In this document: positions 1 through 23,484 of the stretch, piece after piece
Numbering within the stretch: the first letter of the stretch is position 1
Layout of the letters: each line of letters starts with the position of its first letter
Assembly (NCBI GenBank): GCA_008632985.1
Contig: QPGO01000088.1
Span: 310,001 to 333,618 of the forward strand
Reading direction: 5' to 3'
DNA: 23,618 nucleotides
Source of the DNA: Psammoneis japonica
Taxonomy: Eukaryota
Notes under the pieces: model-generated
What the model was told of the DNA's origin: nothing
The model's database searches: none
What the model saw: only the letters and a program-made list of their open reading frames with translations
Made by a program: the position numbers and the translations under genes

Positions 1-1124
1 TGCACTTGCAATGCATGGGCTTTGTTTGTTCAGTGTGCAGCCCACCAAGTGCCTGGTGTCTTGAACTCATTTTTCCCCTTCAGATCACATCTTGCTGAGA
101 TTCACATTGTGTGGCAGCTGCCAAGCCAGGATCTCAACTCCTTGCTCTGCAGCCCAGTCCACTCTGCAGGCAGCCCTTCTCTTTGCCAAACATCGATTGT
201 CTGTGGCTCTCCAACAGCTTTGCACAAATGCGAGTCAGTGATCTCATTCTGTCATCCTTCCCTGCACAGCACCCTGAATGGACAGTCACTGGGATGCTCC
301 TCCTTCTCCTCTTTCTTTGCATTGTTGCTCCACTGCTGCCAGCTTGAGGGGTGACAGGTTCCAGTCCCAGGTGGGACTCCGTGTGACATTGGGCCCGCAG
401 AATTCTGCGTGCGAGCTCCGCAGTGAATTTGTTGCGCAATGAAAATGCAAATGATTGCCAACAGAAAAAGATGCAATTTTACGAACGCATCTCCTCCTCC
501 ACACTTGCAGCACATCATTGACAGTTTGCCTGGGCATGTTCTTCAGACATTAAAGAACACACCCAGAGCATTTTCATTCTCATGAGTGTTGAAAATGGAA
601 AGCCTTTGGCTTCGCAAAATGGGGAGCATGAAACAATTTCATAGAACATCACATGCAGAAATCTGCGTGTGCGACATGCCATGCGATCCAAAAAACTCTT
701 GATGTCACAATGCAGCAGTGCGAGGTCCCACCTGGAGCTGGAACGTGTCGGGTGCCACAGAGCAAATCGAGCCCACAGACTGCCCTCCTTCTTGGATGAG
801 AGGCTGTGGACTGTGGATTGTCTTGTGACAAAGAGCACCCCCCCCCCCCCTTCATGAGCATCACCACAGCACTCATCAAACAAAGCAGATGATGCCAACA
901 GCTCACTCACACATTGCAATCAATCTGCTGGCAAGTGCGGAACTGCTTGCTTGTTTTTAGCCCTGTGATGTGCATCGTCGCATCGCAAGTGCACGTTTCC
1001 ACGCGCAGGTTCACTTCGGGCCACTGGGGCCCTGCGCACTGCGCCACTGATGCACTCGCATGCTCACGGTTTGGGTTGTGAATGCTGTGTTCTTCGCGGC
1101 TTGTTGCAGGTCACCGCTGCCCAC
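1..1124. mobile_element. TpA-depleted, probably repeat-derived island (family not identified; open at window edge)
   Basis: Only about 4 TA dinucleotides in 1-1140 (near 480, 551, 642, 958; hand count), with abundant TG/CA. Overlapping C/H-rich ORFs on both strands, none recognisable. TE origin is inferred from the same signature in the array and the Pif1 relic. Confidence 0.5.
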
Positions 1125-1938
1125 TGTGGAGGCAGACGGAAAGAACACAACCCTGGGCACAACTGTGCAGGGTCTAGCACTTCTTCTACAGGGTCACCAG
1201 GAAAGCACAGACACCGACTTCCGCTACATCAACCTGCAGCACCCTCCAAGACGCGCAGCTGCGAAGACAACCAAAAAAGAAAACGATCGCGACAATGGCC
1301 TCCCTTGCGTCGCTGACATCTGTGTCTATTTTTGCCGTATTTTCCCGTTTCTTTTCGCAGCATTCGGAGCTTTTATGCAAGCAATGTGATGGGCCAGTGG
1401 TGCTGGCGTTGAGTTCAATCCGTCGAGGCGGATTTGTCGCTGAAGGTGCAGTGCAGAAATTGTGAGAATGCAGCATCAACATGACGGATTTTTGTGATGT
1501 GCTGTTGTGTCTTTGGTGTTGTTTCTCACTTCTTGTCATCATTTTGACGCATGTGCTGTGAGGTGTCCACGGGGCTTGGGTTTTCATGGTGCTGACTTTC
1601 TCTTCGGAGCTTGTCGTTGAATGATCAAAATTGAGCTGCCACTGGAATTTATGGCAAAGAGTTGGCGGCGGTGACATCTCAACATCCCTTGGGCCGATTT
1701 TCGCGATTCTTGTTTCATCATCAATGGAAATTGTACAAGGAATCCAAGAGGCTTGGTTTTGTTGTGCAAAACTCCATTCTGTGCAGATGGATTTATTGGA
1801 TGCCGTGCGCACAGAAATGATGCTTCAATTGGAAGGGGTGCTCCAGCGATGTTGTGGATTGAACAAGGAAGAATGAAGCCCCAGACATGCACTGCATGTA
1901 ACAAGAATGTCAAACATGAATGTCAAACATGGCACGGG

Positions 1939-2250
1939 GTTTTTTGCGTCAGTTGATCGTGTCGGGTTGCCTTGATTTGACAGAACATTCCACGGCACCA
2001 ACCGGTTTGACACGCAGCTGGAAATCGGCTTCCTCCAGTGTTCCAACCAATTTGACCTTGCTTGCATGGGCAAGCTGTTGTCGCCTGGTTCGGGCGTTCC
2101 ATGCGCCTTTAGACCCATCCACCACGACATCGTTGGGGGTTGTTTGAATGGCCTCTGGTTGGTGAAGTCTTGTTCACATTGACAAGTCACCCCGCCAAGA
2201 AATGACGTGAGTGCCATCAAGGTTGGCTTGTGATGCTTTTTAGACGGCAT
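1939..2250 (-). pseudogene. N-terminal fragment of a Crypton-like (tyrosine-recombinase element) protein, unit 1
   Basis: MPSKKHHK...WMGLKAHGTPEP...ARSNWLEHWRKPISSCVSNRLVPWNVLSNQGNPTRS resembles the WMxxKAYGxPxP...RSxSLxYxKKAISYxMPN...WN...GNPTRS N-terminus I recall from stramenopile recombinase-associated TE proteins. Similarity stops after GNPTRSTD. Family recognition is from memory, not a search. Confidence 0.55.
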
Positions 2251-2425
2251 GGTCTCGGTTGCATTGTTGCATAAATCTGTCAAAAACGCGACGTGCCATG
2301 CAACAACCCGGTTGTTTCGATGCGGGAAAAATTCCCGTGCTTCCTCCACAAGAACACGGAAGATACGGTCGCTGAAGTGGGGTAACGGTCAGTACAATGT
2401 GTAGAATTCAACGGAGAAATACTAC

Positions 2426-2486
2426 GGAATACAACATGGGTTGTATTCCCGGGATAATGTGGAGGTAGACGGAAAGAATACAACCC
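2426..2486. repeat. Junction structure: 10-bp hairpin plus 11-bp inverted repeat across the unit junction
   Basis: GGAATACAAC-atgg-GTTGTATTCC at 2426-2449. GGGTTGTATTC (2438-2448) and GAATACAACCC (2476-2486) are inverted across the junction. Equivalent structures occur at the other junctions, and the hairpin is also at 6425-6448. Confidence 0.85.
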
Positions 2487-3271
2487 TGGGTACAACTGCG
2501 TAGGGTCTAGTACTTCTTCTACAGGGTCACCAGGAAAGCACAGACACCGACTTCCGCTACATCAACCTGCAGCACCCTCCAAGACGCGCAGCTGCGAAGA
2601 CAACCAAAAAAGAAAACGATCGCGACAATGGCCTCCCTTGCGTCGCTGATATCTATATCTATTTTTGCCGTATTTTCCCGTTTCTTTTCGCAGCATTCGG
2701 AGCTTTTATACAAGTAATGTGATGGGCTAGTGGTGCTGGCGTTGAGTTCAATCCGTCGAGGCGGATTTGTCGCTGAAGGTGCAGTGCAGAAATTGTGAGA
2801 ATGCAGCATCAACATGACGGATTTTTGTGATGTGCTATTGTATCTTTGGTGTTGTTTCTCACTTCTTGTCATTATTTTGACGTATGTGCTATAAGGTGTC
2901 CACGGGGCTTGGGTTTTTATGGTGCTGACTTTCTCTTCGGAACTTATCGTTGAATAATCAAAATTGAGCTGCCACTGGAATTTATGGCAAAGAGTTGGCG
3001 GCGGTGATATCTCAACATCCCTTGGGCCGATTTTCGCGATTCTTGTTTCATCATTAATGGAAATTGTACAAGGAATCCAAGAGGCTTGGTTTTGTTGTGC
3101 AAAATTCCATTCTGTGCAGATGGATTTATTGGATGCCGTGCGCACAGAAATGATGCTTCAATTGGAAGGGGCGCTCCAGCGATGTTGTGGATTGAACAAG
3201 GAAGAATGAAGCCCTAGACACGCACTGCATGTAACAAGAATATTAAATATGAATGTTAAACATGGCACGGG

Positions 3272-3583
3272 GTTTTTTACGTCAGTTGATCGTGTCGGGT
3301 TGCCTTGATTTGACAGAACATTCCACGGCACCAACCGGTTTGACATGTAGCTGGAAATCGGCTTCCTCCAGTGTTCCAACCAATTTGACCTTGCTTGCAT
3401 GGGCAAGCTGTTGTCGCCTGGTTCGGGCGTTCCATGCGCCTTTAGACCCATCCACCACGACATCGTTGGGGGTTGTTTGAATGGCCTCTGGTTGGTGAAG
3501 TCTTGTTCACATTGACAAGTCACCCCGCCAAGAAATGACGTGAGTGCCATCAAGGTTGGCTTGTGATGCTTTTTAGACGGCAT
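3272..3583 (-). pseudogene. Crypton-like protein fragment, unit 2
   Basis: Same as unit 1. Retains ISSYMSN where the other copies read ISSCVSN. Confidence 0.55.
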
Positions 3584-4604
3584 GGTCTCGGTTGCATTGT
3601 TGCATAAATCTATCAAAAACGCGACGTGCCATGCAACAACCCGGTTGTTTCGATGCGGGAAAAATTCCCGTGCTTCCTCCACAAGAACACGGAAGATACG
3701 GTCGCTGAAGTGGGGTGACGGTCAGTGCAATGTGTAGAATTCAACGGAGAAATACTACGGAATACAACATGGGTTGTATTCCCGGGATAATGTGGAGGTA
3801 GACGGAAAGAATACAACCCTGGGTACAACTGCGCAGGGTCTAGTGCTTCTTCTACAGGGTCACCAGGAAAGCACAGACACCGACTTCCGCTACATCAACC
3901 TGCAGCACCCTCCAAGACGCGCAGCTGCGAAGACAACCAAAAAAGAAAACGATCGCGACAATGGCCTCCCTTGCGTCGCTGACATCTGTGTCCATTTTTG
4001 CCGCATTTTCCCGTTTCTTTTCGCAGCATTCGGAGCTTTTACACAAGCAATGTGATGGGCCAGTGGTGCTGGCGTTGAGTTCAATCCGTCGAGGCGGGTT
4101 TGTCGCTGAAGGTGCAGTGCAGAAATTGTGAGAATGCAGCATCAACATGACGGATTTTTGTGATGTGCCATTGTGTCTTTGGTGTTGTTTCTCACTTCTT
4201 GTCATCATTTTGACGCATGTGCTGCAAGGTGTCCACGGGGCTTGGGTTTTTGTGGTGCTGACTTTCTCTTCGGAACTTGTCGTTGAACAATCAAAATTGA
4301 GCTGCCACTGGAATTTGTGGCAAAGAGTTGGCGGCGGTGATGTCTCAACATCCCTTGGGCCGATTTTCGCGATTCTTGTTTCATTGTTGATGGAAATTGT
4401 ACAAGGAATCCAAGAGGCTTGGTTTTGTTGTGCAAAACTCCATTCTGTGCAGATGGATTTGTTGGATGCCGTGCGCACAGAAATGATGCTTCAACTGGAA
4501 GGGGCGCTCCAGCGATGTTGTGGATTGAACAAGGAAGAATGAAGCCCTGGACACGCACCACATGCAACAAGAACATCAAGTGTGAGTGTCAAACATGGCA
4601 CGGG

Positions 4605-4916
4605 GTTTTTTACGTCAGTTGATTGTGTCGGGTTGCCTTGATTTGACAGAACATTCCACGGCACCAACCGGTTTGACACGCAGCTGGAAATCGGCTTCCT
4701 CCAGTGTTCCAACCAATTTGACCTTGCTTGCATGGGCAAGCTGTTGTCGCCTGGTTCGGGCGTTCCATGCACCTTTAGACCCATCCACCACGACATCGTT
4801 GGGGGTTGTTTGAATGGCCTCTGGTTGGTGAAGTCTTGTTCACATTGACAAGTCACCCCACCAAGAAATGACGTGAGTGCCATCAAGGTTGGCTTGCAAT
4901 GCTTTTTAGACGGCAT
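4605..4916 (-). pseudogene. Crypton-like protein fragment, unit 3
   Basis: Same as unit 1. Starts MPSKKHCK. Confidence 0.55.
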
Positions 4917-5937
4917 GGTCTCGGTTGCATTGTTGCATGAATCCATCAAAAACGCGACGCACCATGCAACAACCCGGTTGTTTCGACACGGGAAAAATTC
5001 CCGTGCTTCCTCCACAAGAACACGGAAGATGCAGTCGCTGAAGTGGGGCAACGGTCAGCACAATGTGTGGAATTCAACGGAGAAACACTACGGAGCACAA
5101 CATGGGTTGCATTCCCGGGACAATGTGGAGGTGGACGGAAAGAATGCAACCCTGGGTGCAGCTGCGCAGGGTCCAGCACTTCTTCTACAGGGTCACCAGG
5201 AAAGCACAGACACCGACTTCCGCTGCATCAACCTGCAGCACCCTCCAAGACGCGCAGCTGCGAAGACAACCAAAAAAGAAAACGACCGCGACAATGGCCT
5301 CCCTTGCATCGCTGATGTCTGCATCTGTTTTTGCCGCATTTTCCTGTTTCTTTTCGCAGCATTCGGAGCTTTCACACAAGCAACATGATGGGCCAGTGGT
5401 GCTGGCGTTGAGTTCAATCCGTCGAGGCGGATTTGTCGCTGAAGGTGCAGTGCAGAAATTGTGAGAATGCAGCATCAACATGACGGATTTTTGTGATGTG
5501 CCATTGCATCTTTGGTGTTGTTTCTCACTTCTTGTCATTGTTTTGACGTGTGTGCTGTGAGGTGTCCATGGGGCTTGGGTTTTTGTGGTGCTGACTTTCT
5601 CTTCGGAACTTGTCGTTGAATGATCAAAATTGAGCTGCCACTGGAATTTATGGCAAAGAGTTGGCGGCGGTGACATCTCAACATCCCTTGGGCCGATTTT
5701 CGCGATTCTTGTTTCATTGTCAATGGAAATTGTACAAGGAATCCAAGAAGCTTGGTTTTGTTGTGCAAAGTTCCATTCTGTGCAGATGGATTTGTTGGAT
5801 GCCGTGCGCACAGAAATGATGCTTCAATTGGAAGGGGTGCTCCAGCGATGTTGTGGATTGAACAAGGAAGAATGAAGCCCCAGACACGCACTGCATGTAA
5901 CAAGAACATCAAATGTGAGTGTCAAACATGGCACGGG

Positions 5938-6249
5938 GTTTTTTGCGTCAGTTGATCGTGTCGGGTTGCCTTGATTTGACAGAACATTCCACGGCACCAA
6001 CCGGTTTGACACGCAGCTGGAAATCGGCTTCCTCCAGTGTTCCAACCAATTTGACCTTGCTTGCATGGGCAAGCTGTTGTCGCCTGGTTCGGGCGTTCCA
6101 TGCGCCTTTGGACCCATCCACCACGACATCGTTGGGGGTTGTTTGAATGGCCTCTGGTTGGTGAAGTCTTGTTCACATTGACAAGTCACCCCGCCAAGAA
6201 ACAACGTGAGTGCCATCAAGGTTGGCTTGTAATACTTTTTAGACGGCAT
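5938..6249 (-). pseudogene. Crypton-like protein fragment, unit 4
   Basis: Same as unit 1. Retains MPSKKYYK (HH in units 1 and 2, HC in unit 3). Confidence 0.55.
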
Positions 6250-6555
6250 GGTCTCGGTTGTATTGTTGCATAAATCTATCAAAAACGCGACGTACCATGC
6301 AACAACCCGGTTGTTTCGATGCGGGAAAAATTCCCGTGCTTCCTCCACAAGAACACGGAAGATACGGTCGCTGAAGTGGGGTAACGGTCAGTACAATGTG
6401 TAGAATTCAACGGAGAAATACTACGGAATACAACATGGGTTGTATTCCCGGGATAATGTACTTGTATCACCGAGTTGTGCGTTGTTGTCTGCCTGTCAAC
6501 TGTCAACTTCTTATCATACAACCTCAACAACTTAGTGAAGCATGCGACGTAAGCT

Positions 6556-8790
6556 ATGGCGATGAATGTTGGATGGAGGTTGTTGTCATATTCAAACACA
6601 CGCAAATGTACACGGAGGTCTTTGTTTCAGTTTCTTGCCCGACGAAACTACAGCGATGAGCCTGTTTCGATACGCGACAATCCAGAAATGATCCAAGACA
6701 TTCCCTTGGAGGACGTTCGATGCTTTTGCTTTATAGCCCACGTTGATCACGGGAAATCTAGCTTAGCGTCACGCGTATTGGAACTGGCGGGGAACTTAGG
6801 TGCCGAAGCTCAAAATGAGGCGCTGCAAGCAGCTTTGAATCACGATCAGAAATTAGATGCCGATGACACTTCCAGCAATGTATCTGAAGCGATTGAAAGT
6901 CATTCGACGGATTCCAAGGAGAACGTTGCTCTGCTAGATACACTGTCTGTCGAAAAGCAACGAGGCATTACAGTCAAGGCATCGGCTGCCACCATGCTTT
7001 ACAAGCACCCTTCTGCTGTGGGCCCTCTTGGTGTGTTGTTGCTCAACATGGTGGACACCCCAGGCCACAGCGATTTCGGAACCGAAGTCTCGCGGTCACT
7101 TTCATTCGTTCAGGGTGCAATTTTGCTCCTGGATGCCACTCAGGGTATTCAAGCTCAAACATGGAATGTTCACGAAAAGGTAATGGCCATTCAGAAACGT
7201 CAGCTCGAACAACGTCAGGCGCAGCTCAAACTATTGGTGGCGTTGACAAAAGTAGATTTGAATCTTGCTCGGCCCATTCATGTTGCCTTGACAGTGTCTG
7301 AGTGGTTGTCTTGGGATGACCCTGATGATATCTTGTGGACAAGCGCTCGGAACCGTATAGGGATAGCCAAGGTATTGGATGCTGTTTGTCGAAACGTACC
7401 TTCACCGACGGCGTTATCGCTTGAGAATGACGACCAGCTTGTAGCGCAAGTTGTAGACTCCTATTTTGACCCGCTACGTGGTGTGGAGTGTGTCGTGCAA
7501 ATCCTCTCAGGGTCCATGGAGGAGGGGGACAAAATTGCAATTTGTAACAATCAAGATGGAACTGATGGAGACAGTACCCGGTCATTTTTTTCTGTGCAGG
7601 AAGTCGGGATACTGCTGCCAAGTAACTTCCGAACGAAAAAGCTGAGTCGAGGCCACATGGGTTACGTTCGCTTTGGACTGCGAGACCCAAGACAAGCTAT
7701 GCCGGGTACCATCTTGACACGACGACAGCATGTGGGAATTGCCTTACCTTCACATCTACTTATCGACAATGAAACTACAAGAAAGGCACAGGTATCAGTT
7801 TTGTACGCATCGGTTCATCCAACCGAAGCTGATGGCTTTGAAGAGCTTTGCCACGCGGTTGATAAGCTGGCGTTGAATGATACAGGTTTGGAAGTCTCCA
7901 AGACGTCATCCACCGGAAATCACGATGGAAACAGCGGCGGACCCTTTCTCGGCCCTGGTCTACGAGTCGGGTTTCAAGGCTTATTGCATGTAGAAGTATT
8001 CCGTCAACGACTTCTTGATGAATTCAATCTCGATGCAGTTGTAACCCCTCCGAAAGTTTCATATACCATCAAAATGTTTCCCAGCAAGAACAACAGAATA
8101 ACAGAACCTTACACATACGTTGTAGAAAACCTAACGGATTGGCCCAAACCAGGGACTAGATTTACAGTCCAAGAACCTGTGGTGCATGTGCGGATCGTCG
8201 CCCCCATGGAGCATGCCGGCAATATAATGGAGCTAGTGAAACGTAAACGAGGGCGGGACCTGTCAAGTCACCCCATGGACGAGGATACGTGGGTTTTCCA
8301 AGCAATCATGCCTTGGGGTGAAGTGGTCACGAATTTTGATAACGATCTGAAGAATGTCACAGCAGGCTACGGAAGTCTTGATACGTGGGAGGCTGACCCA
8401 CCGCTGCAAGAAGCAAATTTGTCCAAGGTTGATATCATGTTGAACGGAGAAATCGTAGAGCCTCTTTCGTTTGTTTGTCATGTCAGCGTTGCACAGACAG
8501 AAGGAAGAGTTGTCTGTGAAAAACTCAGAGAAACGTTGCCGCGCCAGCAGTTCGTAACTGTGATTCAGGCTGCGGAAAATGGGGGGCGAATTATTGCAAG
8601 TGCTCGTATTCAAGCTTATCGCAAAAACGTTTTGATTACCGGTGGCTCTAAATCCGTAGGTGGAGGTGACGTGACGAGAAAGAAGAAGCTCTTGGAGAAG
8701 CAGAAACGGGGCAAAAAACGACAGCAATCTACTGGAAGAGTCACCCTCAGCCAAGCCGCATTCAACAGTGTCATCACAAGATCGTCCTAG
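6556..8790 (+). CDS. GUF1: Translation factor GUF1/LepA (EF4) homologue, probably mitochondrial, 744 aa
   Basis: Motifs FCFIAHVDHGKSSLA (G1), LDTLSVEKQRGITVKA, DTPGHSDF (G3), GFQGLLHVEVFRQRL, LPRQQFVTVIQA and the LepA C-terminal GGDVTRKKKLLEKQKRGKKR. Arg-rich N-terminal presequence-like region. Intronless. Confidence 0.93.
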   Translation: MAMNVGWRLLSYSNTRKCTRRSLFQFLARRNYSDEPVSIRDNPEMIQDIPLEDVRCFCFIAHVDHGKSSLASRVLELAGNLGAEAQNEALQAALNHDQKLDADDTSSNVSEAIESHSTDSKENVALLDTLSVEKQRGITVKASAATMLYKHPSAVGPLGVLLLNMVDTPGHSDFGTEVSRSLSFVQGAILLLDATQGIQAQTWNVHEKVMAIQKRQLEQRQAQLKLLVALTKVDLNLARPIHVALTVSEWLSWDDPDDILWTSARNRIGIAKVLDAVCRNVPSPTALSLENDDQLVAQVVDSYFDPLRGVECVVQILSGSMEEGDKIAICNNQDGTDGDSTRSFFSVQEVGILLPSNFRTKKLSRGHMGYVRFGLRDPRQAMPGTILTRRQHVGIALPSHLLIDNETTRKAQVSVLYASVHPTEADGFEELCHAVDKLALNDTGLEVSKTSSTGNHDGNSGGPFLGPGLRVGFQGLLHVEVFRQRLLDEFNLDAVVTPPKVSYTIKMFPSKNNRITEPYTYVVENLTDWPKPGTRFTVQEPVVHVRIVAPMEHAGNIMELVKRKRGRDLSSHPMDEDTWVFQAIMPWGEVVTNFDNDLKNVTAGYGSLDTWEADPPLQEANLSKVDIMLNGEIVEPLSFVCHVSVAQTEGRVVCEKLRETLPRQQFVTVIQAAENGGRIIASARIQAYRKNVLITGGSKSVGGGDVTRKKKLLEKQKRGKKRQQSTGRVTLSQAAFNSVITRSS

Positions 8791-8880
8791 AAAAATATAG
8801 AGAAGCTTAACATCTCTTTTCTGTCGCAGAGGTGTCCTTTGTAGCGTTGGAAAAGTGAAGCATCCTCGGATCTATCTCAT

Positions 8881-10350
8881 CAACTGTCAGCATGGACGCC
8901 CAAACCCAATCAACCACAGTGTCTGCAGCCACTCAGTCTGTCTTGACACTTGGTGGCATCCGCGCAAATGATGCAAAGCGAGTCTTTGAAGCACGCCAAT
9001 TTGGAAAGGAGGATCCATCTGTTGTGGATGCAGAAGAGGAGGCGAAGTTACCCCATCACTTTGCATTGGAGATTGCTTGTGTTGCTGAGCACTGTGGAAG
9101 TTGCAAACAGTGAAGAAGAAGCAAAGTCTGTTCATGAGAAGTCGGCGACTTTGGCTGCCTTTTACATGGAATGCAATGCCAAGCACCCATCCATGCCATG
9201 GGGAGAGCCACTCAACCAATGCCTTGATCAGAAAGCTCACTCCATGATGGATTGGAAGAATGCAGGAAAAATTGATGGAAAGCTCTTGTTTGGGCGCCAT
9301 TGCTTGTGAGGCTGCTGCCTTGAGTGGAGCCAGGCCATCTCATTCAATCAGCGGCATCCCTCAGGGCATGCATGGTGAGGGTCTCCACACATGCAGAGCT
9401 TGTGTGGGCTGAGTCCAGCTGTTGACAGAAGTTGCAAATGCACCAAGCAGCCTTGAACATCCTTGCACAAAAGAGGGATGGTCTGTTGCGTGAACTTTTG
9501 GGCATGGATCGAGGCAAAGGGAGGACTTGTTGCAAAAAGTGCGCGGTCTGCAAGAGACGTGTGGCAAGAACAACAAAGAAGATGGGGGATCACACCACAG
9601 AAAAAATGCAGCAAAAGGTGGCATTCTGGCAAGCCTGATCTGAGCAATCCAGTGCCAAATTAACCAACCCAAAGTCTTTGTTGACATTGACCGTCTTTTG
9701 CTCTTTTCCAGTTTGACAGGATTGGAAAAAGTGAGCTCTCATCATGAGTGGCTTTCTTGCCAAGCCCACAACTTGTGTTGCTGCTTCACATGCATGCCAG
9801 CAGTCTCGAGAAAAGGACAGACACTGCCCTCCACCTGTTCAATGCACAAAATGATGGATCTGCTCTCAGCAACAGCGGGATCACAGCAAAGGTGGGGTGC
9901 CACATCTCTCCAAACACTGAATTTTTTCTTGTTTGCATGCTGCAGGAAAGTTCATGTGACAAGCAAAGAAGCTCATGCAGACAGCTCCCTCATGCCATGT
10001 CGGCAACGGTGCAACCAAATCATTGCTGGAGGCAGTGATGAATCCTGCTGGTGTGAAAAGCAATGTTGCACAAACCCAGAGCTGCCAACGAAGGTTGTGG
10101 TTGCGGGGCAACAACTTCAAACTACTCTCTGCCTGCAAAGTTGGAAAGTGGCTTGCACTTGGCATGTCCCAAACAGCTCACCAACCATCAGCGCTGATGT
10201 CGGAACGAGACTTGAGCGTTGTGTTCCTCCTGGAAATCAAAATGCTTGGTTTCGGGACGGACGGGCGGCCGCCCCCCCCTGCGCGCGCCCGAGCTTTTCG
10301 CATGAAGCGCGCTCGCCGCAAATTCCGAACTTCATGCCGCTTCATGCCGC
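8881..10350. mobile_element. TpA-depleted island between GUF1 and the carrier gene (unidentified repeat or gene relic)
   Basis: About 4 TA in 1470 bp (near 9049, 9163, 9661, 10123). TA resumes abruptly at about 10351. Broken gene-like frames on +, and a GC-rich right end. Confidence 0.55.
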
Positions 10351-10417
10351 TAATGCTCATTTATATTTCTCTTTTACTGTAAGGTTACATGTGCTTGTAG
10401 AAGTAACATCGGACGCC

Positions 10418-11647
10418 ATGGCGGCAAGAACCGCATCATATGCAACCCCCAGCGATGCGCCTGTAGCCCTTCCACCCATTTTTCATGCAGTTGGAGGCTC
10501 CTTGGGATCGGCCTTGGCGCTGTTATTGTTCTTCCCGTTGGAACGGGCGCGAATCGAAATGCAGTCGGCGGCAGCAGCACAACAACCAGAGAAGCATTCA
10601 GACGACATCGAATCATCAAGTGATGACGAATCTAACAATAAATTGGATTGTGTTCAGCAAAAAGACGATTCTTGGGTTCAATTTGCGGAACAGAAAGATC
10701 GCAAACGAAGCGAGGCCGCCGATGAAGACGAGGCTTCGTGGTCCATGTCGTCGCATTCGCAGTCAATTGAAGACAGGTCCGCGGCAGCAAACAGGAGTGA
10801 GTTGATATCTTGTCTTGTTGGATTAAAAAATCAAGGTGAACTGTACAGAGGGGTGTCACCTGTAATTACTACCATGGCAGCATCCAACTTCGTTTTCTTT
10901 TACGCGCACGCTGTGGCAAAGCGATACCTCTTCCCCGTCGCCAGTTCGATAGGCAAGAAAACCCCGTCACTCTCGAGGTCGTTGTTCGCTTCCTGTCTAG
11001 CCGGTATTGCCAATGTTCTAATTACCAATCCGTTGTGGGTGGCGAACTTACGTTTTGTTCAAGGCGAGTCCAAGACACCTTCCTTGTTTCAAGAAGTACA
11101 TTCCATTCTAAGAGTTGAAGGAAAATCTCGCTTGTGGAATGGAACATGGGCCTCCCTCTTGCTCGTGTCCAATCCTGTAATTCAATTTTTTCTTTACGAG
11201 CAATTGAAAGCCAACCGTATCTCTCGAAGCCTTCAGGGACGCATAACACCGAGACAAAATCAGCAAGCAACAGTGTTGGGGCTCACTCCTGTCGAAGCAT
11301 TCCTTCTGGGAGCCACTGCAAAGGCTGCAGCCACGGTTGCGACTTATCCACTACAGCTTGCTCAAGTCCTGCTGAGAATACAGCAAAAGCATAAAGAGCA
11401 GGACGCAGAATCCAAAGATAGAACTGTCATGGTTTACAATGGTACATGGGATTGTTTTCGCAAACTCTTCAAACAAGGGGGTGTTGCTGGTTTATTTCGA
11501 GGATTGGAAGCAAAACTGCTTCAAACAGTCTTGACGGCAGCCTTCACTTTCCTCACATATGAACAGATAATCGTCTTGCTGCGGGTGGCGTATGTTAAAT
11601 TATATCAACGGCGACTCCAGTCGCGTCGTATATTGAATTCGAACTAA
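10418..11647 (+). CDS. Mitochondrial carrier family protein, peroxisomal PMP34/SLC25A17-like, about 409 aa
   Basis: Three carrier repeats: FPLERARIEMQ, TNPLWVANLR, TYPLQLAQ. PMP34-type motifs SLLLVSNPVIQFFLYEQLK and GLEAKLLQTVLTAAFTFLTYEQI. The start is taken at ATG 10418; the upstream 240 codons of the 649-aa ORF lie mostly in the TA-void island. Confidence 0.88.
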   Translation: MAARTASYATPSDAPVALPPIFHAVGGSLGSALALLLFFPLERARIEMQSAAAAQQPEKHSDDIESSSDDESNNKLDCVQQKDDSWVQFAEQKDRKRSEAADEDEASWSMSSHSQSIEDRSAAANRSELISCLVGLKNQGELYRGVSPVITTMAASNFVFFYAHAVAKRYLFPVASSIGKKTPSLSRSLFASCLAGIANVLITNPLWVANLRFVQGESKTPSLFQEVHSILRVEGKSRLWNGTWASLLLVSNPVIQFFLYEQLKANRISRSLQGRITPRQNQQATVLGLTPVEAFLLGATAKAAATVATYPLQLAQVLLRIQQKHKEQDAESKDRTVMVYNGTWDCFRKLFKQGGVAGLFRGLEAKLLQTVLTAAFTFLTYEQIIVLLRVAYVKLYQRRLQSRRILNSN

Positions 11648-13371: not shown

Positions 13372-13714
13372 TCTTAATCGAGAGATTCAATGCGAATATA
13401 ACTGTATGGCACAATCGAAAAAGAGGCTGGAGGGTGCAATGGATGAAATGTTGTCTGTTGGCTATTGCGAGGTGACGGGAGGAAAGCGAGAAGCGAGATA
13501 ACGCGTCGCGCCAAAAAATGTCGGAGGCAAATAACACACAGGGCACGGACAGACAGAATAATGATGACGGAAAGACGCACGGTCAGTACGTCGATCGATG
13601 CGATGATCCTGTATGGTTCGTCGGTCATTTCTTTTTGCGGGTCACAATCTGAAGTCCAGATTGGACGCTTCGCTGAACGGCTGTGTCTCGTTGTCTTTAT
13701 TTACAAACATTTAA

Positions 13715-15459
13715 GATGAAACATCAGATGCTTCAAACAACACAATGACATTGCAATTGTCAAAATGTCAAGCAATGAGAAGGATGTCCGTGGTGCTCTT
13801 TTGTTTCATTTGGAGACACTCGTCAGCCACCAGCAAATCATGGCTTCTCGACATCTGCGCAAGTTTCGTGAAATGTTTCATCAGTGTCATCTTCATCACA
13901 CACCTCTCCAATCAACTTGACAGTGACCCACAAATGGTTGGGTGCAGCAGGTGGAGAGTGCACAATGTTGCACAATGCACCATCAGCAACATGCTCTGTC
14001 TTGCACTTTTGTCATCTCTTCTTTGTGCTTTGTTGCCCAACTCTTGATGAACTGACAAAGCTGAAGACATGATTTGGTGGTGTTTTCATTGTTCATTGTG
14101 ATCAGATGAGTCCTGACAGGCGCCAGCCATTCTCCTCTGGATTTTCATCATTTTTGCACTGACTGACTTTCATGGAAACATCTGAAAGTCGAAAACCTTG
14201 ATCTGCCAGCAATCTTTTCCTCATGGAAAGTGACATCCCAAGCAATGCAACCTGCGCTGTTGCCACTGGTCTTGACAGGAATGCAGTCAACAACGGCATT
14301 TTCAAGAAGGTGCTAGAGGGAACATGCTCAAAATCTCTTGCACAGTCACCTCCAACCCACACCATTGTCCTCTGAGCAAGCAAGAACCTCAAGCGGAAAA
14401 AATGGAACACCAGGTCATGCAAGCATGTGGATTTTCAAGATGAACTGTCCAAGGACATTTTGTTTGCAGTTTGTCCAGATGCTCACGTCAAATGAGCTGG
14501 AAACGAATCAAGGCATGTGGGCTCACTTCTGAAGCTTTGCATGGCCGCCCTGTGACAATGAACCTCGACGAGAACATGTGGAGAAAAAGGAGGCCAGTGG
14601 CACTGCTGGCTTTTTTCAGGGAGTTGAGCTGAAGGAATGTGTTTCTTTGGATGATTTGGAGTTGATGAGGATTGATGGTCATTGGGTGAGGTCAGCCTGT
14701 GTTTTGCAAGTTGAGTCGATTGTCTTGAGGCATGAGGAAAAGGCAGGAGGATGAGAGCTGTTTTCTTGTGTGGCTCCAAGGAGAGAGACATGCTGTGTTG
14801 TCAACTTTCCTGTCCCTGTGATGGGTTTCATTCACAAAAAAAAACAAGAATCAGTCAGAGGAAGCAATTGACCCAGTTCCCAGTTTTGTGCAACAATGCA
14901 GCAACTGTGCACAAGCTCCAGGGGGTGCAAAATTGAGAGCCTGGTTGTTGTCCAACAACAACTTTGACCACACAGACAGCTGGGTTTGTGTGGTTCTGTC
15001 TGCAGTGACAACAAGAAAGGGGCTTTGTCTCAGAAAGAAGTTGGAAGTTCAATGGCAGGAAAATGAAGGGCACGCCATTGGCATCAAGTGAGTTCCTTGG
15101 TCACTTCAGAAGCACAAGAGAGGGCTCCAAGAAGAGAGCTGCCAGGCTCCTCTGGTGCTGCAAATGACTGTGCAAGGCATTCACAACTGAAGGTTGCAAT
15201 CATCAGACAATGACTTTTAATTTTGACAATTCATCAACAATCTGGGCTTGCATCATGTGATTGTCCTTGTCAGGCATAGAAACAAGGGTGTTGAGTGAGT
15301 TGTTTGCGCTGGTTTGAAAGCAAGCGAGTGCGCAAAAAGCCCAAAATCACCGCATCCATCATCTCAACGGAAAAAAGGGCTGTGTCACACACAGTGCATG
15401 ATTGAGGGTGCAAAACAAGACAAAAGCAACTGTCAATGGCATCCCAACCAAAAAATGAC
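13715..15459. mobile_element. TpA-depleted TE relic (Helitron/Pif1-helicase-bearing element)
   Basis: About 3 TA in about 1745 bp (near 14314, 15218, 15277), with sharp edges and few CpG. Contains helicase motifs. Confidence 0.7.
14040..15060 (+). pseudogene. Degenerate Pif1-family (SF1B) helicase
   Basis: Motifs in the expected order, across frameshifts: FGGVFIV..DQMSP (motif III-like, about 14073), CAVATGLDRNAVNNGIF (about 14251), LLKL..GRPV.MN..E...EASGT (about 14526), QFPVLCNNAATVHKLQG (motif V, 14874-14924), WVCVVLSAVTTRKGLCL (motif VI, 14981-15031). Confidence 0.8.
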
Positions 15460-15831
15460 TAAGGCAATATAAAATTCGGAATATATTGCATGTTAGTAAA
15501 CAAAGTAATTTTTATGAAACCCCGAACCATGCGAAAGTCATTGCATTCTATTTTTCATACAAAGACCGCTTGCGAATTTGGTCCATTTTGTCAGCCCCAA
15601 TAAACCTCGACTTCGTCTTACCCGTCTGTCTCCGGTCCGTTTGGGGTCAGGGCAGGGGGGAGACACAGACGGATTCATTCAACAACTCGTCCTTTCTCCC
15701 TCGAGAGAGAAAGATACCATCACTGTGGAACACGACCTAGTTTCTTTTTCTCTCTGAGATTTGGTTGGTATTTACTATCTAGGAACTAAACTATCTCAAA
15801 GCCCACATGTTTGAGTAAACATAGTCCTGTC

Positions 15832-19098: not shown

Positions 19099-20337
19099 AT
19101 GAATCACATGTTCAGAGGAGTTGGACGTCTCTCGGAGGTTGTGATGGAGAGAGCATCGGGAACCTATGTCAGCACCCAATGTGGCCGCACTCTCTTAGAT
19201 TTTGTGTCTGGTATTGGAGTCACGAATACGGGAAACAACCACCCGAAAGTAGTTGCTGCTGCCAAGGAACAATGTGACAATCTCGTTCATGGACAAGTCA
19301 ACCTCGGATACCACGCCCCAATGATTGAACTCACGGAAGAATTGATGCGTCCCGGCGTCATGCCTCATCCGCAGCTTGATAGAATATTTTACTCAACCAC
19401 GGGAGCCGAAGCAGTAGAGAATTCTATCAAGCTAGCAAAGTATGCCACTGGTCGCCCCAATGTAATTGTCTTTCAAGGCGGGTATCACGGAAGAACATCT
19501 TTGACAATGGCGCTAACTACGTCCTCAACAATTTACAGACAGAAGATGACAACTTCATCGAACGTCTTTGTTGCGCCTTTTCCCTATGAGCTTCATTCCA
19601 AAACGGTAGAGAATTGCCTTGACGACCTACAAACGATCTTGAAGACGCAGACCTTACCAGAGGAAGTTGCCGCTGTGATTATTGAGCCAGTACTTGGCGA
19701 GGGCGGCTATGTTCCAGCGCCTGCTCCGTTTCTAAAGGGCCTTCGTGAGATTTGTGATAAACACGGCATTCAACTTATTATGGATGAAGTTCAAACAGGT
19801 TTCGGAAGGACTGGAGAGCTGTTTGCGTCAAATCTTCATCCGGAGTGTCCGCCAGATATTTTGGTGATGGCAAAAGGATTAGCTTCTGGTTTTCCGCTGA
19901 GCGCCGTCGCAGCACGGTCTGAGTTGACGGACATGCAAGCTCCCGGCACAATGGGAGGGACTTATGCTGGCAACGCTATTTCGTGTGCTGCTGCCATTGC
20001 CACGCAAAAAGTTATTCGTGAAGAGGGACTCCTGGAGAACTCCAAGAAACAGGGAATGAGGCTTTGGAGTGGCTTGAAGGCTCTACAAAAAGAGCACGAC
20101 ATTGTTCGTGATGTGCGTGGTCCTGGCTGCATGGTGGGATTGGAACTTCAAAAGGATGCCCCGTCTGGCACGAACAAGAGCATTTCACAAGCTTGTTTCG
20201 AAAATGGAATGCTGCTGCTTCCTGCAAGCATTCATCCTACCGTTCGATTTATCCCTCCTCTAAACGTCAGCGACAATGAAGTGGACGAGGGATTAGAAAT
20301 TTTTGAAAAGTCCCTCAAACAGGTTGTGTACCAGTAG
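19099..20337 (+). CDS. Class III PLP aminotransferase, 4-aminobutyrate aminotransferase (GabT/PuuE)-like, 412 aa
   Basis: Motifs LDFVSGIGVTNTG, TGAEAVENSIKLA, FQGGYHGRT, IIEPVLGEGGY, LIMDEVQTGFGRTG, MAKGLASGFPLS (PLP lysine), GGTYAGN. Confidence 0.9.
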   Translation: MNHMFRGVGRLSEVVMERASGTYVSTQCGRTLLDFVSGIGVTNTGNNHPKVVAAAKEQCDNLVHGQVNLGYHAPMIELTEELMRPGVMPHPQLDRIFYSTTGAEAVENSIKLAKYATGRPNVIVFQGGYHGRTSLTMALTTSSTIYRQKMTTSSNVFVAPFPYELHSKTVENCLDDLQTILKTQTLPEEVAAVIIEPVLGEGGYVPAPAPFLKGLREICDKHGIQLIMDEVQTGFGRTGELFASNLHPECPPDILVMAKGLASGFPLSAVAARSELTDMQAPGTMGGTYAGNAISCAAAIATQKVIREEGLLENSKKQGMRLWSGLKALQKEHDIVRDVRGPGCMVGLELQKDAPSGTNKSISQACFENGMLLLPASIHPTVRFIPPLNVSDNEVDEGLEIFEKSLKQVVYQ

Positions 20338-20698
20338 ACTAGAAGTAGCTAAGGTGACTGCGAGACAAAATGTTTTCCGTAGCTTTTCCTATCAAAATGA
20401 GAGGGCGCATATTATGGTGACTTTCTTGGTCTGATGTAGCGAGGCAATATAGGGTAATAGGCTACACTCTTTACAGAGTCTCTCTCATGATAGTGTAAGG
20501 CCCTCTCTCTAGAGAGAGAAGACGAGTAGTAGAGTGAAGCAGTTGGTCTACTTAAGCTTCCTCGCTCCCAACTGGTCGTGTCGTACTATGCGGTCGGCGG
20601 GCGGGCGGTCACTGCACTGAAAAGATAGATACACAGTAAAAAGAAAAATTCGGAGTTTCACAGTTCACGATGCCGCTCATGGGCTGAGCCCATCAGCT

Positions 20699-21845
20699 AT
20701 GAAGTCCCGTGAAAGAGCTACAGTCTGCGACGGCGTCGGAAACATGGTGGCTCTCCAACGCTCGTAATAGTTGTTTCGGTTGCCGCAGCTGTTGTTTGGA
20801 TTGCATTAATGTCTTTCTGGATTGGATCCATGCTAGCTGCATCTGATGGGGCTTCTCGCTCGGCAGTAAGGATGCCGGGTCCAGTTGTTTCAAAAGACAA
20901 TGCAAACGATTTGTTGCCAGTTTCACCATTTGATATCTGGCCAGATGACACCGAAACTTATGATTTTTTCGGACATTGAAAAGTTGTGAACCCTCGAAGC
21001 TGGTAGCAAGTGTAAGGAACCAGTGGGTCTCTCGACCCACCGTGTAGCCGTACTTAGTCCTCCTGGGTCGATCGCTGATTTCGTCGCATCGTGGGTCAGA
21101 TCCGCTGTAAAGTTTCATAGCGCTGGAGAGCAGAACCACAATATTGAAATTGTGCTTTTGAAATTCGAGTCACGTTCCAGCGTATGGGTACGGAAAGAGC
21201 CACGGATTTCAGAAGATCATTCGCGTGGCTTCATTTCCAATGAGTCTAGCTGCGGCCGACACGGTGCAGTTCGCATTGTCGTCTAAAGGGGGTGAAAAGC
21301 ATGATGGTTTGGAAGATATGAAGGAGGTATCACGACAGGTTGTCCGCTGGCATTGTCGTTTGTCCCATGTTTCGGCACACACCCCGCTCTTGACTGTTAC
21401 GATGGAGAGCCTCATTGAAGACCCGTGGGAAATTGAAGAGCGATTATGCGGCTTCCTAGGTTTTTCAAAGAGGGAGTCTGGTGAGATGGAGGATATAGAA
21501 GAAGGAAAGCATATGGACGAAGACGAATTAATGCGATCCGTTGAGCCTATCCTTGATCATGCAAGTGATCTGCTAAACAAGGTGGACCGGGAATCGGGCA
21601 CAGAGAGTATGGAGTCGGTGCTGAATTCTGTGATTGCGGAGGAGCTGAAAGCCACGGACGACCTGTCGGCATGGCCCTGTGAGTCTTTTTGGACTGTCGG
21701 TGAGAAACGGAATCCGACCGTTCTCTCTCCCGTCGCTCGTCGCGTAGCCCAGGCTATGGCCCCGGAGTGCTCATCAGAACACGTGAATTGTGAAGTAAAG
21801 CGAGACAAATGTGAGGAGCGAGGGGACGCAATTTGCAAAGACTAG
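20699..21845 (+). CDS. Uncharacterised type II membrane protein, about 4 apparent frameshifts (error or pseudogene)
   Basis: Stitched frames give RRRRKHGGSPTLVIVVSVAAAVVWIALMSFWIG (TM), HRVAVLSPPG, SHVPAYGYGKSHGFQKIIRV, RQVVRWHCRLSHVSAHT, and a Cys-containing C-terminus ending at 21845. The start is uncertain. Confidence 0.6.
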
Positions 21846-21901
21846 AATACTACCAGGTACGCGTTAAGTACGAGGTAGTCTAATACGTACAGGTATTGAA
21901 G

Positions 21902-23484
21902 TTACACTGTTCTAGTCTGAGGGTCAGTCTTCGGCTCGTCGGGCGGTTTTTCCTGTGCATCAACGCTCATCTGCTTTGCCTGCTTGATCATTTCCTCCTG
22001 GTCTTCCTTGGTCACTTCCTGACCTTGAGCTTTTGCCATTGTCGTCATCGCAGCAACCGACATGCGCGTTTTAATCTCTTCTGGGTGAAAGTCATCTTCG
22101 GATTTGGCACTTTCAGCCATCCTTCCAATTGTTGTAAACTCTCTACCTAGGATGCGGACAGCTTCCGCTCGTTCAATACGAGCTTCTTTGGGCACGGCTG
22201 CATCCGCAAAGAGCTTCTTACACACTTGCTTGAGGGTTTGTTGAATATCTCGTTTGTTGATCGCCCAAGCCAAACCCAAGAACGCTGGGAGCGACTCATT
22301 CATAGTTTCCTCCATGGCGGCAGCATTCTCTGGATCTAGCTCCTGACCCTCTTCCATACCCCGCTGCATGTCTTCAGCTTGTTGCATAGCTTTGGCTCCT
22401 GCGCCTGCAGCTTTGATGCCAGCACCAAGCAGTTTCATATTGTTGTTAAAAGCTGAGGCATTCTTTCGTGTCTTGGCGAAATGACCACCTAACCCCAAGA
22501 ACGTCTTTTGGAATCCGAGATACTCTTCGGCGTCTGAAAAAAAGAGTAAAGCATAGAGTAAGAGAATCGGAAATATTGCCGCAACGACAAAGCAACCGGC
22601 ATCTTGGTCGTATTTCACTCAACCAGTTGGAGAGCAGTACCAATCGTTATGGCATTACACTTTCCAAATGCCCCCCGGTAATCTTCAAGGCTTCTCTTTG
22701 CCGCCAAGACGAATTCTCGCGTAGCCTTCTCCTTCTTCTTCAGCAGGGACGCCGACAAAGGGCTCTTTTTTCTCAAAATTCTGTGCGCATTTGACCTGCC
22801 TCTTGCGTTGCTTGATTTCGTCCTTTTGCTTCATTTCCTTGATTTTCGCCGCCATGAGCTCCTTTTTTCTCCTCTGTCATGTTCTCCGCCTCCACGGCTG
22901 TAGCTAACCCGTCGTCTTTCATCATGCTATCAGCTGTATTGGCATCCATAGCTCGCCAATGTATGCTCGACCAACGAAGACCCAACATGACATTGAAAAA
23001 GACGAAAGGGTCAACATCTTGCGCGGCATCGCCCTCGTTTCCTTCCTTCTTTCCGTTCTTATCGTAGTCTGCACGGGACTGTTCATTACTAAGTATCTGA
23101 TAGGCATGCCCAAGTTGTTGGAATTTCGCCGCTGCTTCAGGTCGTCGGGATTTGTCGGTGTACCTTTCTTGCTTCCTTGTAATAGGCCTTCTTGATGTCG
23201 CCTTGACTGGCGTTGGTCGAGACCTTGAGAAGATCGTAGTACTCGCGGTCTTTCACCTCGCGTTCCCCTCTTCTGATACACAGCACCAGCATCCGAAGCT
23301 GCTTCGTCCATCGCCTTCAATTCTTCACTCTGTCAGGAAATAAAAAGACCACTGCTTCGTCTCGGGGTCCCTACCTGCCCAGCGCCTTGCTTCTTTTGCA
23401 ATTCGAACCTCCTCCGCTTTGCTGGCGACCGACTTGCCACACTGTCGAGAAAGCTCTCCAACCACCGCTTTGTTTCTCAGCCAT
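21902..23484 (-). CDS. DnaJ-domain plus DnaJ-X-domain protein, multiple apparent frameshifts; 5' end uncertain
   Basis: VKDREYYDLLKVSTNASQGDIKKAYYKEARKVH[PD] ... AAAKFQQLGHAYQILSNEQSRADYDKNG, DPFVFFNVM, YIGELW. The C-terminal ORF 21902-22618 has SLPAFLGLAWAINKRDIQQTLKQVCKKLF...RIERAEAVRILGREF, typical of the X domain. Confidence 0.8.

Follow-up and report, generated by a model that had tools for sequence, protein, structure and literature searches.

We analysed a stretch of 23,618 nucleotides of nuclear DNA from the diatom Psammoneis japonica (GenBank assembly GCA_008632985.1, contig QPGO01000088.1, positions 310,001 to 333,618, forward strand). This whole stretch is called the window in the following, and all positions are counted from its first letter. 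It contains a tandem array of four 1333-bp units whose copies differ mainly by A:T>G:C changes at TpA dinucleotides. We consider it probable that the array is a case of localised TpA-directed A:T>G:C hypermutation of nuclear diatom DNA, i.e., of the same kind as described for the chlorarachniophyte Bigelowiella natans (B. natans; bioRxiv 10.64898/2026.01.13.699255), brought about by a TpA-acting enzyme over silent or foreign domains. Taken by itself, the statement that the hypermutation exists and matches the B. natans type is one in which we place high confidence; that an adenine deaminase is the agent is a tentative and purely conjectural part of the proposal.

Array structure and differences between units

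The array spans positions 1125 to 6456, i.e., four head-to-tail units of exactly 1333 bp (1125-2457, 2458-3790, 3791-5123 and 5124-6456; start-to-start spacing 1333, 1333 and 1333). Comparing both array ends column by column, we find the trinucleotide TGT both at the unit start and in the right flank (6457-6459), i.e., a 3-bp microhomology at the array junction. Since this TGT is identical to the beginning of a unit, the copy number of the array is whole (4 x 1333). Unit 1 also carries a 13-bp tandem repeat of 2.5 copies (1900-1931, AACATGAATGTCA), and its counterparts in units 2-4 show TA/TG/CA changes of the same type.

We compared the four units in register and ungapped over the 1333 columns. 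The comparison yields 109 variable columns, namely 55 C/T and 54 A/G columns, with no transversion and no indel; pairwise, the units differ at 38-73 positions. If two thirds of all changes were transitions, observing 109 transitions among 109 variable columns would have a probability of 6e-20. Ordinary divergence of the units is ruled out by this 109:0 ratio together with the lack of indels.

The variable columns are strongly confined to one type of site. There are 335 pyrimidine-purine dinucleotide columns, of which 116 are invariant TG, 90 invariant CA, 57 invariant CG and only 4 invariant TA. TA, TG and CA replace each other at 57 sites, where all three states are found at 25 and both CA and TG at 30 of them. 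Another 11 sites vary between CG and either TG or CA, with CG being the majority state at 10 and a 2:2 tie at the remaining one. CG is absent from all 57 TA/TG/CA-varying sites, i.e., CG and TA never share one site. Grouped by class, TA-type sites comprise 87 of the variable columns, while CpG sites and other contexts account for 11 each. That is, 87 of the 109 variable columns lie inside the 122 columns of inferred TpA sites, for which the chance probability is 3e-69. The original prediction, which had been made from the sequence alone, stated that the differences fall mostly at TA/TG/CA sites, and aligning the units and tabulating the contexts confirms this (87/109 columns in 57 such sites). 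The examples it quoted are likewise correct: columns 9-10, 22-23 and 34-35 each read CA, TA, TA and TG in units 1-4, columns 54-55 read CA, TA, TG and CA, and columns 193-204 are as quoted. Changes outside the target sites amount to only about 0.1-0.2% among the units. The unit copies are thus young, and the rate at TpA is a few hundred-fold above background.

Mutation spectrum and context

With TA as the ancestral state (see below), the differences between units correspond to 165 events, 150 of them A:T>G:C and 15 G:C>A:T, again without transversions or indels. TpA accounts for 140 of the 150 A:T>G:C events. Their products are TG in 69 and CA in 71 cases, i.e., strand use is even, site by site. 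The predicted rule that A changes to G after a T on either strand is therefore borne out. Among the 15 G:C>A:T events, 12 are located at CpG (11 CpG sites) and yield TpG or CpA, and none of the 15 creates a TpA. A CpG>TpG/CpA change is thus also present and affects about 6% of the CpG sites. Hence, the earlier account of the spectrum holds with respect to TpA loss, while it had overlooked the loss of CpG, which shows in these 12 events and in the CG observed/expected (o/e) ratio of 0.32-0.44 in the older blocks described below.

We also related the changes to the number of available target bases. Within the two hypermutated tracts of the array (see below), 127 of 307 target bases at TpA are changed (0.414), compared to 8/636 at ApA (0.013), 2/414 at GpA (0.005) and 0/564 at CpA. 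For C, the respective numbers are 11/352 at CpG and 2/1294 elsewhere. Since one change removes both targets of a TpA, 127/307 bases translate to about 83% of the TpA sites changed in the two tracts together. In the spared stretches taken together, 13 of 181 TpA target bases and 1 of 192 CpG target bases are changed. A>G change at ApA occurs as well and is weaker than at TpA. Concerning the base 5' of the changed A, T is preferred far above A (about 30-fold), and A ranks above G and C. This is the neighbour preference of ADAR/ADAT-like adenosine deaminases, i.e., T first, then A, with G and C poor.

TA as the ancestral state

The data support TA as the ancestral state at the TA/TG/CA sites, as had been predicted. 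A history of C>T changes only would need 208 events, compared to 140 with TA as the ancestor. Furthermore, it requires 30 CpG sites to have changed in all four units, while 57 changed in none, 10 in one and 1 in two; a binomial of the same mean expects 1.3 sites changed four times and 19 never. The ancestor implied by such a history has just 4 TA in 1333 bp. The TA-ancestral unit, on the other hand, shows a TA o/e of 0.63 and a CG o/e of 0.97, which is close to unaffected DNA of the window (TA o/e about 0.4-0.5 in genes and 0.72 at 20338-21901). TA as the ancestor is also in accordance with two further observations, namely that other copies in the sequencing runs mostly carry TA and that TA and CG are nearly absent from three further blocks of the window, which are rich in CA+TG. 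If the target A strictly requires a preceding T, the missing CG is accounted for as well, since the first change destroys the target on the opposite strand such that CG never appears.

When both members of a unit pair are changed at the same site, they show the same state in 18/35, 18/34 and 17/33 cases. An agreement of about one half is what is predicted by independent changes on a random strand. Units 1 and 2 carry the same state at 9/9 jointly changed sites, and because of this some of their changes look inherited.

Hypermutated tracts and spared stretches

For each of the 61 inferred TpA sites, we recorded along the array whether TA is retained or has become TG or CA. A first hypermutated tract covers 1125-2321 (unit 1, columns 1-1197) and runs on leftwards into a TA/CG-poor block (1-1124). 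It is followed by a largely spared stretch in which TA is mostly kept (2322-3833); this stretch begins near the end of unit 1, includes the complete unit 2 and reaches column 43 of unit 3. The second tract ranges from 3834 to 6203 (unit 3 column 44 to unit 4 column 1079), and the end of unit 4 (6204-6456), which adjoins the GUF1 gene, is spared again. Within this unit, the last 17 sites keep TA at all but one, and that change is common to units 1 and 2. The tracts thus measure about 1.2 kb (plus left flank) and 2.4 kb, and the pattern, including the spared middle of about 1.5 kb, is out of phase with the unit boundaries. Along the array there are 62 runs of kept or changed sites, a value reached by 0 of 10,000 shuffles. 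Bursts on a single strand, as in repeat-induced point mutation (RIP), are not seen, i.e., runs tests on strand give p-values of 0.26, 1.0, 0.80 and 0.50.

The composition of the tracts separates the two types of loss. For tract 2 (span 3901-6200) the o/e values are 0.07 for TA, 0.76 for CG and 1.59 for CA+TG. In general, TA o/e in the array tracts is down to 0.07-0.09 while CG o/e is still 0.74-0.76, such that TpA loss is fast and CpG loss is slower.

Other TA-free blocks of the window

Sliding-window o/e values of TA, CG and CA+TG reveal three blocks outside the array. The left block (1-1124) contains 4 TA and shows o/e values of 0.06 for TA, 0.44 for CG and 1.76 for CA+TG (span 1-1100). Two intergenic blocks are located at about 8874-10123 (TA 0.05, CG 0.39, CA+TG 1.67; span 8901-10300) and about 13713-15460 (TA 0.05, CG 0.32, CA+TG 1.72; span 13601-15400). 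The latter includes 904 bp without any TA (14315-15218), where 62 are expected from the base composition. All three blocks show a saturated end-state, i.e., almost no TA, greatly depleted CG and CA+TG at about 1.7 times the expectation. As predicted, neither RIP nor decay of 5-methylcytosine (5mC) fits, given that TpA is what is removed (o/e 0.05-0.09 over blocks and tracts). Altogether, TA-poor, CA+TG-rich blocks make up 7,300 of the 23,618 bases of the window. Outside the array, TA depletion and CG depletion correlate (Spearman 0.42, p 0.011, 36 windows).

The left block contains an element resembling a miniature inverted-repeat transposable element (MITE; 353-749) with 25-nt inverted ends (353-377 and 725-749) that are 88% complementary. 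Summed over contigs of the sequencing runs, the depth over 300-803 is 29,000-327,000, compared to 20-55 at the adjacent flank (804-1091), so that the MITE-like element belongs to a very abundant repeat family. The flank 804-1124 shows single-copy depth and yet is equally TA-depleted. A run of about 13 C is found at 838-851 within this TA-poor left block.

Pfam reports no family for the open reading frames (ORFs) of the TA-poor blocks (10 + 71 window ORFs, among which only five host genes were matched). A self-BLAST of the window reveals no further repeat that links the TA-poor blocks to one another or to the array, and Rfam and tRNA scans of the window return 0 matches. We also applied the TA-poor block criterion to 48 diatom-like metagenome loci around GUF1 homologues, where 0 of 314,584 bases are covered; these contigs are gene-dense and thus provide weak evidence on other diatoms. 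The genes of our window have TA o/e values of 0.37-0.53, which is below most of the diatom-like metagenome contigs around the same gene (0.54-0.88). A low-level form of the same process, or selection, may act genome-wide.

Unit copies in sequencing runs

To relate the array to other copies, we compared contigs from three sequencing runs of one sample with the flank and unit 1. Note that summed contig depth is not copy number. It is 20-55 for the flank (804-1091) and about 1,100-5,300 for the unit, i.e., roughly 20-100 times the flank. This suggests that unit copies far exceed four somewhere or that the array has been collapsed in the assembly. The extra copies may be part of a longer array that was collapsed, lie at other loci or form a free element.

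Among 35 listed places of the array, 28 have TG or CA in unit 1 and TA in other contigs, and at 22 of these 28 TA holds most of the depth. Most depth being TA, the bulk of copies resembles the reconstructed ancestor. In addition, 3 places show TG in unit 1 versus a CG majority, and one place is reversed, with CG in unit 1 and TG in the single contig found there. The states specific to the window are also recovered: in run X1 their depth, e.g., about 45 at position 1166 and about 59 at position 1377, is similar to that of the single-copy flank. This run includes a 315-kb contig, which implies that its reads are accurate.

These data bear on the targeting. The original prediction had the process directed to repeats, and this part is not supported, because the tract borders do not coincide with those of the units, a stretch of about 1.5 kb within the array is largely spared, most depth of the other copies is TA, and a flank of single-copy depth is depleted.

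Genes and open reading frames

A gene for mitochondrial GUF1/LepA (Pfam) adjoins the right end of the array. Among its relatives listed, 15 of the 15 matches that name an organism are diatoms (Thalassionema, Nitzschia, Cylindrotheca, Pseudo-nitzschia, Cyclotella and others). A class-III aminotransferase is encoded at 19099-20337 (plus strand; Pfam PF00202, E 6e-114); its nearest named relatives among the matches listed are the diatoms Gedaniella (69%), Thalassionema (61%) and Coscinodiscus (59%), followed by oomycetes and one bacterium (51-56%). For two window proteins, the best relatives are marine sequences of 72% and 69% identity. The genes are eukaryotic, and their relatives identify the source as a diatom and not as B. 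natans. A comparison with 40 homologues shows that all conserved Tyr (7/7) and Arg (9/9) residues of the aminotransferase are retained. The gene is an internal control, i.e., DNA that was not hit. That all 7 Tyr are kept means that there is no genome-wide miscall.

The lack of TA also affects ORF prediction. A 649-codon ORF for a mitochondrial "carrier" (9698-11647, plus strand) has Mito_carr matches near its C-terminal end only. Its N-terminal part, which runs through the block 8874-10123, is probably a false extension because the TA-free block lacks stop codons. Within every unit of the array, two minus-strand ORFs of 208 and 174 codons share one frame with a TGA between them (2522-3145 in unit 2), and their length is probably helped by the lack of TA-containing stop codons. 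TA-free blocks without stop codons are thus a hazard for annotation, as they create long false ORFs such as the carrier extension. None of the four 208-aa ORFs has a Pfam match, even at E 10, and a protein atlas offers no usable match for the unit ORF (low recognition score of 973). A HMMER search of 1.84 billion proteins with the 208-aa ORF of unit 2 gives one match, an 844-aa F5/8 type C (galactose-binding) repeat protein (P0135). Its E-value of 9e-9 is summed over five near-identical repeats and the pairwise E is about 1e-4, such that the resemblance is a weak lead only. Finally, a DnaJ gene on the minus strand is split in two ORFs (21905-23252), with DnaJ-X at 21905-22618 and a partial J domain at 22776-23252. 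This arrangement suggests that the gene contains one intron or more, while introns are otherwise scarce in this stretch.

Proposed mechanism and alternatives

As the comparison of the units shows, two contiguous tracts lost most of their TpA after duplication of the 1333-bp unit, independently in each unit and with the rest remaining almost unchanged. The following mechanism would account for this. An enzyme would convert A after T into a base that is read as G, most likely via deamination to hypoxanthine by an ADAT/TadA-fold or similar deaminase. This would be the simplest route and agrees with the observed ranking of the preceding base, with T far ahead of A and A ahead of G and C. The enzyme would act over chromatin domains marked as silent, foreign or repetitive, and not via repeat pairing, because the tract borders ignore the unit phase, part of the array is spared, the single-copy flank is affected and the large target in B. 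natans is single-copy. The CpG loss would then be ordinary 5mC deamination in the same methylated domains.

The chemistry may also concern the other base of the TpA. That is, the T could be modified, e.g., to 5-hydroxymethyl- or 5-formyluracil by a JBP/TET-like dioxygenase, and be read as C owing to mispairing with G, which 5-substituted uracils are prone to. TpA is self-complementary, so that A>G and T>C on the opposite strand are indistinguishable (TG 69, CA 71). Moreover, a 5-methylpyrimidine is the first base of both TpA and methylated CpG, which are lost from the same blocks, and the same enzyme family acting on 5mC could promote the CpG loss. We nevertheless regard a thymine target as unlikely, since the secondary changes follow A preceded by A (8/636), i.e., the neighbour preference of adenosine deaminases, and both a JBP/TET gene and the modified base remain hypothetical here; adenine deamination is also what the B. 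natans authors favour. An error-prone patch synthesis by a polymerase eta-like enzyme recruited to the tracts, as suggested in the original prediction, would likewise give A>G, and TpA and far less often ApA together form its WA motif (W being A or T). It fits poorly, however, and is very improbable in our view: polymerase eta also introduces many A>T and A>C changes in somatic hypermutation, while 0 transversions are found in 109 variable columns or 165 events, and the about 30-fold preference of T over A goes far beyond a WA rule.

Two further alternatives question the changes themselves or their direction. The units might be (nearly) identical, with TG and CA being called because base-calling is misled by a modified base at TpA, or because the consensus was built over a collapsed, much longer array. 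The array depth of roughly 20-100 times the flank, the predominance of TA in this depth and the recovery of just 59% of the sampled words in the best run would agree with such an artefact. Still, we consider it improbable because the window-specific states are present in run X1 at about single-copy depth in accurate reads, the window genes keep their conserved Tyr codons, the TA-free blocks 8874-10123 and 13713-15460 cannot arise from repeat collapse, and the tracts are clean with 50:50 strand use and without CG ever being formed. Alternatively, the polarity might be reversed, with RIP-like or methylation-driven C>T changes making the TA-rich unit 2 the most mutated copy. Diatoms do methylate transposons, 12 genuine CpG>TpG/CpA events are present, and 11 sites are explicable by one C>T each (7 with CA in three units and TA in one, 4 with TG in three and TA in one). 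We find a reversed polarity scarcely credible, given that the 30 sites with both CA and TG need CpG ancestors that changed in all four units while 57 CpG remained untouched, that the ancestor would hold just 4 TA, and that the old blocks end TA-free and CA+TG-rich, which is the opposite of a RIP end-state.

Several points weigh against TpA-directed hypermutation by an enzyme acting over silent or foreign domains, our preferred explanation. There is no deaminase gene in the window, i.e., the enzyme itself is inferred, and Pfam reveals no domain of viruses or transposons, neither for the unit nor for the blocks. The polarity is based on arguments internal to the data and on further copies from the one sample rather than on a copy from an outgroup species. 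As the tract borders were drawn after viewing the TpA data, only the ApA and CpG contrasts are independent tests, and these show no more than a marginal enrichment within the tracts (Fisher p 0.059 and 0.065, respectively). The sequencing runs are given as contigs only with no library type on record and are possibly the source of the assembly, so they are no independent support; in addition, the best run contains only about 59% of the words sampled from 300-7800, such that part of the assembled array is unconfirmed there. Finally, CpG is lost in parallel here, while in B. natans the process came without C>T changes.

The parallel loss of TpA and CpG would find a common cause if Rhizaria and Stramenopiles shared an ancient eukaryotic defence, i.e., one dual-specificity deaminase performing A>I at TpA and C>U at CpG over kilobase domains of unwanted DNA. 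If true, the TA-free, CG-poor, CA+TG-rich blocks would be scars of a single enzyme rather than of two processes. We rate this extension as rather unlikely.

Comparison with known systems

With RIP of ascomycetes, the array shares pure transitions on one dinucleotide, which are ruinous to duplicated sequence, leak into neighbouring DNA and leave a compositional footprint. In contrast, RIP changes C>T at CpA and thereby makes TpA, while the process in the diatom removes it. Furthermore, part of the array is spared, the tracts ignore the unit borders and there is no sign of single-strand bursts, and we know of no link of the diatom process to a sexual cycle. Decay via 5mC deamination accounts for the 12 CpG events in the array and for the low CG of the old blocks (0.32-0.44). 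It cannot remove TpA and covers only 12 of the 165 reconstructed events, such that it is a side process only.

Deamination by ADAR/ADAT enzymes is alike in that A is read as G and in the preference for the preceding base, i.e., T far above A, above G and C. These enzymes act on RNA in vivo, and to our knowledge no natural enzyme edits chromosomal DNA in kilobase domains. DNA editing has been reported for amphioxus ADAT2 (PMC10354150). ADAT2-type enzymes are reported to perform both A>I and C>U on DNA in vitro.

According to the original prediction, no such system was known to have been described in this lineage. This is right for diatoms insofar as our literature search found no report of TpA hypermutation or of a RIP-like process in them; only the B. 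natans preprint matched. Before this 2026 preprint, we knew of no cellular organism that subjects its own chromosomes to A>G hypermutation at TpA. The novelty does not extend to the signature itself, which is already in print with B. natans; by its sequence pattern, the diatom would be the second lineage with hypermutation of this type.

According to the preprint (Mettrop et al. 2026; bioRxiv 10.64898/2026.01.13.699255), 231 of 302 nuclear single-nucleotide mutations in B. natans fell in two integrated viral regions. 230 of these 231 were A>G or T>C, all 230 at TpA; other mutations amounted to 1/211 in the region derived from a nucleocytoplasmic large DNA virus (NCLDV) and 0/20 in the virophage region. 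Mutations arose at a rate of about 6e-7 per site per generation, with only some of the lines being affected. Of the two regions, the large one is present as a single copy and is transcriptionally silent. As the agent, the authors suggest an adenine deaminase resembling ADAT2, and they liken the process to RIP. They also report clusters of TpA-poor, CpA+TpG-rich windows in the genome, using cut-offs of 0.43 and 1.52 (bioRxiv 10.64898/2026.01.13.699255).

The differences concern host, target and evidence. Here, the host is a diatom (Stramenopiles) instead of a chlorarachniophyte (Rhizaria), and the process has affected a tandem repeat, a MITE-like repeat and unannotated intergenic blocks without detected viral genes, while viral insertions are reported there. 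TpA loss is near-saturated here compared to a Rho of 0.45 given for the NCLDV region. In B. natans, new mutations were observed in the laboratory, whereas ours are deduced from copies alone. Beyond the mutation-accumulation counts, the array adds bounded tracts of about 1-2.5 kb that ignore the repeat phase, a TpA loss of about 83%, even strand use, a neighbour preference and slower CpG decay. These tract features provide constraints for finding the enzyme and the targeting signal.

On the other hand, the preprint and our data agree in near-exclusive A>G/T>C changes at TpA on both strands, in kilobase-scale regions, in a rate within the affected regions far above the rest (by orders of magnitude in B. 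natans) and in the TpA-poor, CpA+TpG-rich footprint. With TA o/e values of 0.05-0.09 and CA+TG values of 1.59-1.76, the blocks of our window exceed both published cut-offs by a wide margin, where the preprint's rule of three consecutive 1-kb windows is not applied here. Since the same signature is thus found in a diatom, i.e., in a different supergroup and among major marine primary producers, the process may be widespread rather than one alga's peculiarity, and TpA hypermutation may be a widespread way of disabling unwanted DNA.

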